From the NCBI RefSeq assembly GCF_044324875.1, contig NZ_CP172185.1: 64,000 nucleotides of DNA. One strand, given 5' to 3'. This document shows, piece by piece, positions 46,438 through 47,491 of this stretch. The notes beneath the pieces were generated by a model. The model searched no databases, was not told where the DNA came from, and was given only the letters and a program-made list of their open reading frames with translations. Made by a program: the position numbers and the translations under genes. Source of the DNA: Escherichia coli. GTDB taxonomy: Bacteria > Pseudomonadota > Gammaproteobacteria > Enterobacterales > Enterobacteriaceae. Numbering within the stretch: the stretch's first letter is position 1; every line of letters begins with the position of its first letter.

Positions 46438-47491
46438 TTGCCTGTTAACGAAAAATTTTGCCGAGTCTCAGCCTCCCTTCACAGTTCACATCAGCAGTAT
46501 TCACAGGCGTTACAAAATTTACAACGTCAACCGGGATTAATAGCCGGAGGTGAGGCCGGGAAACAGGCAGCAACGGCAGTGGGGCTACGTTGCAGTGCTG
46601 ATACTCTTCTTCGCAGGGTTATTAATACCCCGGAGACGAAACAGTCGGGCGCGCCTCATGTCGGTATTGATGAGTGGGCGTGGCATCGGGGCCACCATTA
46701 CGGCACGTTAATTGTCAATCTTGATACTCACCGTCCCCTCGTCCTGCTTCCCGGTTGCGATCAGAGTACGCTGGCGACCTGGTTCAGAAAATATCCGGAA
46801 ATACAGGTTGTCTCACGTGACCGTGGCGGAGTCTATGCGACAGCAGCACGTGAAGGTGCACCTCAGGCCAGACAGATAGCTGATCGATGGCACCTGCTAA
46901 AAAATATTGGCGATGCGCCTGAACGAATGATGTACAGACAGATGCCTCTGATACGTCTTGTTGCCAGTGGGTTGTCACCAAAGAAATCACCTAAGCCAGT
47001 ACTGTCTGTGCCTGTAGCATCGCTCCGTCGTCCGGAACGCCTTAAACAGCAAACCCGCCAAAAACGGCATCAGCGTTGGACAGAGGTTATGGCACTACAT
47101 AACAAGGGATGTGGGTTCAGGGGAAATATCCCGTATTACAGGCTTATCCCGTATTACAGGCTTATCCCGTATTACAGGCTTATCACGTGTGACAGTCAGT
47201 CTCTGGGTGTGTTCAGGAACATTCCCTGAAATGTCAACCCGGCCTCCAGAGCGAGGACTTCTGGCCCCATGGAGGGAGTGGTTAAAAGAGCAACGAGAAA
47301 GTGGTAACTTCGGCGCGTGGCTGCAAGGATGGCAGCTGATGCTGCGGCTATATGTGAGGCAATCAGCAGTCGCTGGAATAATGGGGGTTGTCGAAAGTCA
47401 TGTAAATCGACTAAAAATGCTGAAAGGCCAGATGTATGGTCGAGCCGGATTTGAACTACTCAGGCAGAGGGTCATGAGTCCACTGGCATGA
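46438..47491 (+). pseudogene. ISL3-like DDE transposase, 5'-truncated and frameshifted
   Basis: IDEWAWHRGHHYGT…VSRDRGGVY…ADRWHLLKN… and C-terminal …VESHVNRLKMLKGQMYGRAGFELLRQRVM. Confidence 0.55.
47128..47190 (+). repeat. 18-bp tandem repeat, about 3.5 copies, inside the transposase coding region
   Basis: CTTATCCCGTATTACAGG repeated, then CTTATCACG. Confidence 0.85.

Follow-up and report, generated by a model that had tools for sequence, protein, structure and literature searches.

Intact insertion sequences of the ISEc38 type in Escherichia coli are 1764-bp elements with 44-nt inverted repeats (84% complementary) and a 539-aa transposase, and their annotation is ISL3 family or, in one case, ISEc38 family. 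We analysed a 64-kb stretch of E. coli DNA (64,000 nucleotides of contig NZ_CP172185.1, hereafter the window) in which the remnant of such an element contains a short tandem array of an 18-bp unit. The remnant resembles ISEc38 and related ISL3 elements of E. coli in its nucleotide sequence (~90% identity), in its matches to DDE_Tnp_ISL3 and NF033550, and in its gene order and ends; it differs from them in being a pseudogene with seven indels, including the loss of 349 bp, whereas the intact elements have only an ancestral, imperfect form of the repeat.

The array itself can be compared with three kinds of described repeats. With bacterial VNTR or minisatellite (MLVA) loci it shares a head-to-tail unit of more than 10 bp, a copy number of one, two or three among strains at an orthologous locus, and a likely origin by slipped-strand mispairing or unequal exchange. 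In contrast to such loci, its range is very short (three copies at most, with none of four or more in 20,395 records) and it lies in the remnant of a multi-copy mobile element; since its alleles move between paralogues and between plasmid and chromosome, the array is a poor clonal marker. It is also like microhomology-mediated tandem duplications, in that copies of a 4-bp TATC, 18 bp from each other, delimit the first duplication and the new unit has the predicted hybrid composition, although here the process is read from sequence only. Phase-variable simple sequence repeats (contingency loci) likewise have a repeat tract in a reading frame and an unstable copy number; in the present case, however, the length of the unit is divisible by 3, the gene had lost its activity beforehand, and the tract affects neither a promoter nor an intact gene downstream, so that the repeat number switches no intact gene. 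A literature search restricted to the term “ISEc38”, the listed matches of which look like genome surveys by title and abstract, returned no published description of the repeat, and it behaves like a previously undescribed example of a well-known kind, i.e., an ordinary VNTR seeded by microhomology slippage. As argued below, the array is very probably a neutral VNTR within what is left of an ISEc38-like ISL3 transposase gene next to the aerobactin operon.

The array and its host element

Three tandem 18-bp units occupy positions 47125-47178 on the plus strand: unit 1 (47125-47142, AATATCCCGTATTACAGG) has two mismatches, and units 2 and 3 (47143-47160 and 47161-47178, CTTATCCCGTATTACAGG each) are both exact. 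They are followed on the same strand by a degenerate fourth unit (47179-47196, CTTATCACGTGTGACAGT; 13 of 18 positions identical to the unit). Tandem Repeats Finder placed the array at 47127-47188, with a period of 18, 3.4 copies, 97% matches and no indels. The first-pass annotation, which had described a triplication of 3.5 copies at 47128-47190, was thus essentially right, and its reading of an 18-bp tandem expansion (a multiple of three) inside an ISL3-family transposase reading frame was borne out. With up to three mismatches allowed, the unit occurs at exactly three sites in the 64 kb, all of them within the array (units 1-3); the chance expectation is 0.01, and three or more matches were obtained in none of 100 shuffles, so the head-to-tail copies are present beyond chance. 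Compared with the 1-copy allele, units 2 and 3 are a surplus of 36 bp, which appears in the alignment as a 36-bp gap in a 1-copy relative (L001) and as an 18-bp gap in a 2-copy relative (L002). The fourth unit encodes LSRVTV and was found in every allele, including the intact ISEc38-like genes (there CCTGTCGCGTGTGACAGT). Because intact relatives without the expansion have it, this unit is evidently the ancestral second half of a motif and not a product of the expansion.

The unit reads LSRITG in the original frame of the transposase, IPYYRL in that of the upstream ORF and YPVLQA in the remaining forward frame; it had been claimed that every frame encodes the same hexapeptide, which is wrong. 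At the repeat site, the intact protein has the sequence NKGCSFREISRITGLSRVTVSRWVRSG, and the unit encodes part of a helix-turn-helix, EISRITG-LSRVTV. Residues 303-394 of an intact relative match positions 2-100 of the IS21 IstA model NF033546 (E 3e-16), more than nine Pfam HTH families gave sub-threshold matches at residues 293-338 of the intact protein, and the ISL3 DDE profile is interrupted at the inserted domain, between positions ~264 and 289. Judged from these profiles, the repeat lies in the first helix-turn-helix of a predicted IS21 IstA-like DNA-binding domain inserted in the ISL3 DDE domain, and the site, with its NF033546 match and its sub-threshold Pfam HTH matches, is not the plain linker for which it had been taken. 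An inserted domain is carried by ISEc38-type ISL3 transposases (intact relative L003:1516-3135), and it corresponds to ~47095-47305 of the window.

The host element, a decayed ISEc38-like ISL3 insertion sequence with ~90% identity to the intact 1764-bp elements, extends over ~46113-47540 on the plus strand, just downstream of iucA and of a shiF-like MFS transporter gene (44818-46011, plus strand), which is next to iucA in the aerobactin island. Terminal inverted repeats as in an ISL3 element are present: the right one lies at 47497-47540 and the left one, recognisable but more diverged, at ~46113-46157 (the repeat finder itself reported no inverted-repeat pair in the window). The ISL3 DDE domain is present as well. 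The ORF 46438-47229 scored 63.8 bits against Pfam PF01610 (DDE_Tnp_ISL3), for which the cut-off is 23. Against NCBIfam NF033550, it reached 166 bits (profile positions 60-264) and the ORF 47111-47491 reached 35 bits (positions 289-368); because of the split gene, neither fragment reaches the cut-off of 180 set for the whole protein, the intact relative scoring 365.6.

Seven indels separate the window element from the intact element (-11, +2, -17, -1, +37, -349 and +1 bp). The +37 indel is made up of the 36 extra repeat bases and one extra G in the run at 47121-47124 (plus strand), which is GGGG in the window and GGG in intact relatives; as a result of this +1 frameshift, the reading frame that comes from upstream leaves that of the original transposase directly before the array. 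The 349-bp internal deletion (junction at 47305-47306, plus strand), which is common to all copies of the pseudogene lineage, is out of frame and takes away the greater part of the inserted HTH domain along with some of the catalytic domain. As a result, the window copy has no intact transposase ORF such as an active element would have; the gene is split into two overlapping ORFs, 46438-47229 (263 aa) and 47111-47491 (126 aa), with the array between them, and the orthologous gene in RefSeq is given as “ISL3 family transposase, frameshifted”. In the alignment, both the extra G and the 349-bp deletion are common to the 1-, 2- and 3-copy relatives. Because the alleles of all three copy numbers share these lesions, the transposase gene is evidently a pseudogene that was dead before the repeat expanded, and therefore the in-frame nature of the repeat has no consequence. 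The in-frame position within a transposase gene had been noted as if it were meaningful, a reading that does not survive the pseudogene state of the host (the extra G, the 349-bp deletion, the other indels and the RefSeq label).

One could still imagine that the repeat is functional, either as a selected hexapeptide expansion in a small HTH protein (the 126-aa ORF 47111-47491) or as a phase-variable switch. That ORF does hold the original frame through the array and keeps the HTH and a C-terminal ISL3 segment. Yet an 18-bp unit is unable to switch frames, the ORF starts at a GTG made by the frameshift context and is without the catalytic core, and most of its HTH domain has gone through the 349-bp deletion; six or twelve residues added within or beside the HTH motif would probably be disruptive, the flanking genes are IS fragments, and expanded alleles, also in exact-pattern scans, were found only in the pseudogene lineage. 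A function of the repeat is thus the least credible of all the explanations considered. The eye-catching in-frame triplication has little biological weight, being a neutral scar in a dead gene, and annotation pipelines should not take it as a protein feature.

Copy number among strains and the origin of the units

Allele counts were obtained from 20,395 complete E. coli records on the basis of BLAST identity bands and match lengths. The window's 301-bp tract with three copies is held unbroken by four chromosomes, whereas 104 records matched a synthetic 2-copy query at 99% or more (among the matches listed, these were ColV-type plasmids and some chromosomes) and ~88-90 records of the pseudogene lineage have one copy; ~2,970 further records contain more distant, unexpanded ISEc38-type sequence. 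Alleles with at least four copies were absent from the 20,395 records: a synthetic 4-copy query gave no full-length match of 99% or more, the four 3-copy records coming out on top at 94%, and a 5-copy allele, which would tie with the 3-copy records against this query, was not found. In PLSDB, 54 of the 60 plasmids among the matches listed have two copies and the remaining 6 have one; the 2-copy plasmids include those of the pAPEC-O2-ColV type and a few from Klebsiella.

Strains differ in copy number at an orthologous chromosomal locus, with one copy in AR_0085, two in strain 104, and three in GF43, TUM9803 and strain 135; the context of this locus comprises YadA-like and sigma-like genes, an IS256 fragment, IS1A, the ISL3 pseudogene and carbamate kinase. 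Because one orthologous locus shows one, two and three copies, the comparison indicates that the array site is a genuine VNTR. The suspicion of the first-pass annotation that the repeat may be a hotspot of contraction or expansion is upheld insofar as the site is variable in copy number, since public E. coli genomes have 1-, 2- and 3-copy alleles at orthologous positions. When the 2-copy junction was searched for as an exact pattern, no match was obtained in 100,044 species-representative genomes and one metagenome contig (L007, two copies) was recovered; the expansion appears to be confined to the pseudogene lineage, in which it was seen in genomes and plasmids of E. coli and in a few plasmids of Klebsiella.

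These counts also bear on the possibility that the triplication in the window is an assembly or sequencing artefact and that the true state is a single copy, as in the nearest relatives. Every closest genome among the matches listed does have one copy at the site. The array, however, is only 54-72 bp long and hence shorter than typical reads, the identical 3-copy tract occurs together with a linked SNP in independent complete assemblies, and 2-copy alleles are present in more than 100 records; moreover, an artefact would not also produce the linked T at 46713 (see below). We regard an artefact as very improbable.

The intact genes already hold an imperfect 18-bp direct repeat (12 of 18 positions identical), as a result of the similar codons used for SRITGL and SRVTVS. 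The pseudogene lineage differs in that its second half starts with TTATCA instead of the CTGTCG of the intact genes; its two halves agree at 13 of 18 positions and have TATC at an identical offset. In the 2-copy allele, the extra unit consists of TTATC, which is the 5' end of the second half, followed by CCGTATTACAGGC from the 3' end of the first half. A two-step course can be proposed. First, a slip or an unequal exchange across the 4-bp TATC microhomology would have re-copied 18 bp and given rise to the 2-copy allele; second, the resulting perfect direct repeat of 22 bp, which would be far easier to slip, might have slipped again to yield three copies. Slippage is here deduced from its product, since the duplication junction lies in the TATC microhomology and the unit is a hybrid as slippage predicts; to this extent, the slipped-strand signature that had been noted earlier finds support, the mechanism being read from the product. 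Slippage driven by a hairpin was considered and rejected, as the region 47110-47210 folded as single-stranded DNA gave -8.1 kcal/mol (z = 0.03 against shuffles), which is nothing unusual. The locus would be a clean example of how a 4-bp microhomology in a codon-periodic HTH sequence seeds a tandem duplication that is then self-propagating. The changes in copy number are selectively invisible because they came after the inactivation of the gene.

The three-unit allele of the window

All 51 records on the backbone of the window (shiF-adjacent, 99.5-99.7% identical) among the matches listed have one copy. The exact 1-copy products of both ORFs on this backbone were found in a collection of ~15 billion proteins, and none of the 2-, 3-, 4- or 5-copy ORF products on the same backbone was found there. 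A haplotype table showed the window to be of the shiF type at every informative site save two features, the T at 46713 and the three copies; the flanking markers at 46508, 46526, 46532, 46587 and from 47265 onward match its own backbone. The SNP at 46713 (plus strand) is synonymous, rare and linked to the 3-copy array, with C in the window-type backbones that were read (L001/L008, L011) and T in paralogues of the IS1A context. The T occurs in only 19 records (19/19 chromosomes), and all that were examined are IS1A-context paralogues; three of the four 3-copy records are among them. Furthermore, 721 bp of the window (46540-47260) are 100% identical to the paralogue of strain TUM9803.

The linked SNP and the shared tract suggest that the 3-copy state and the T at 46713 were probably imported together, by gene conversion or homologous recombination, as a patch of 466-677 bp from a ColV-plasmid-derived paralogue. 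The putative patch, whose left part is marked by the T at 46713, covers at least 46713-47178 and at most 46588-47264. Such an import, whether by conversion or by exchange following a transfer, is the simplest reading of the window allele and is more likely than fresh slippage.

Alternatively, the lineage of the window might have expanded alone, through two successive slips (from one to two to three copies) on the shiF-adjacent copy, with the change from C to T at 46713 as an unrelated coincidence. Slippage demonstrably generates such alleles elsewhere, the window matches its own backbone at all flanking markers on both sides of the array, and a donor copy is absent from the window, which contains only one copy of the element in its 64 kb. 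Against a local expansion, a 2-copy intermediate was present in 0 of the 51 same-backbone records among the matches listed, and 2- to 5-copy ORF products of the backbone are lacking in the 15 billion proteins. The rare T at 46713 is linked to the IS1A-context paralogues, which hold the 3-copy state, and the 721-bp tract matches the paralogue of TUM9803 in full. From one copy, three cannot be reached by a single slip, there being no homology at an offset of 36 bp, and a local origin would need three coincidences (the change at 46713 and two slips), which is less parsimonious. We consider an expansion in place unlikely, though not negligible, and prefer the import of a patch from a paralogue.

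Two other candidates were set aside. An ISL3 pseudogene at ~35431-36647, tried as a donor within the window, has no relationship in DNA sequence to the ISEc38-like remnant. The independent origin of the 3-copy state on two occasions, which was our first reading, was no longer preferred after the haplotype table had shown the linked T at 46713.

The direction and the number of conversion events among the paralogues are ambiguous, because the TUM9803 paralogue carries the shiF-type A at 46587 and the 3-copy paralogue of strain 135 carries C at 46713. Both strains hold both kinds of copy, and the A at 46587 in TUM9803 suggests that exchange may have taken place in the opposite direction too. Whether short-patch gene conversion is active in both directions between the chromosomal copy in the aerobactin island and the ColV-plasmid-derived paralogue of the same dead IS is, in our judgement, an evenly balanced question. 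If it is, the repeat number would visibly tag exchange between virulence islands on plasmids and on the chromosome in avian and extraintestinal pathogenic E. coli. This trace of an exchange of short patches between copies of a dead IS, some chromosomal and some derived from a plasmid, is the only mildly interesting aspect of the array. In practice, the number of copies (1, 2 or 3), combined with the linked SNPs at 46587, 46713 and 47265, provides a cheap marker of remnant type, which separates the shiF-adjacent chromosomal, the ColV-plasmid, and the plasmid-derived IS1A-context chromosomal remnants and flags recombination between them.

In E. coli strain 135 (L005/L010), three copies of the dead IS coexist: the shiF-adjacent copy and that on plasmid p135-3 have one unit each, and the chromosomal copy in the IS1A context has three. 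The p135-3 and IS1A-context copies share the carbamate-kinase flank, which suggests that a plasmid segment may have been integrated into the chromosome.

Genomic surroundings

The region 26036-52773 of the window is 98.9-99.9% identical to a chromosomal sitABCD-aerobactin island of E. coli. Downstream of the element follow an IS3-type integrase fragment, an IS256-family transposase, a sigma-like HTH gene and a YadA-like adhesin gene. The ISL3-family pseudogene at ~35431-36647 (DDE_Tnp_ISL3, E 7e-29) lies on the far side of iutA-iucDCBA-shiF, so that a different dead ISL3 element stands on each side of the aerobactin operon, both pointing the same way.

Other tandem repeats were encountered in the window. 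Inside the YadA-like trimeric autotransporter ORF (50373-51968, minus strand), a 99-bp repeat at 50941-51153 (2.2 copies, 93% matches) duplicates a stalk segment of 33 aa; the annotated length of a related YadA-like gene varies from 1248 to 1746 bp across strains. Two arrays of 45-bp repeats, at 53561-53715 (3.4 copies) and 54006-54588 (13.3 copies), lie in the ORF 53284-54780 (minus strand) and encode collagen triple-helix repeats (Pfam Collagen, E 1e-45). This ORF, which is adjoined by a DUF4376 ORF (52694-53269), looks like a phage tail-fibre-like gene.

Past position 52773, the window diverges from the nearest aerobactin-island genomes and enters a prophage tail region with a J-like tip attachment protein (ORF 60871-63873); two transposases, one of the IS66 family (54844-56415) and one Mu-like (59154-60800), break up this region. 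A 174-bp repeat of 1.9 copies is located at 61385-61710. In addition, an incidental regex match revealed an identical 34-bp stretch (GGCTGTTTTACGCGTATGACAGGCTCCGGAAGAC) at 16418 and 25701, 9.3 kb apart, which probably marks two copies of a repeated (IS-like) element.
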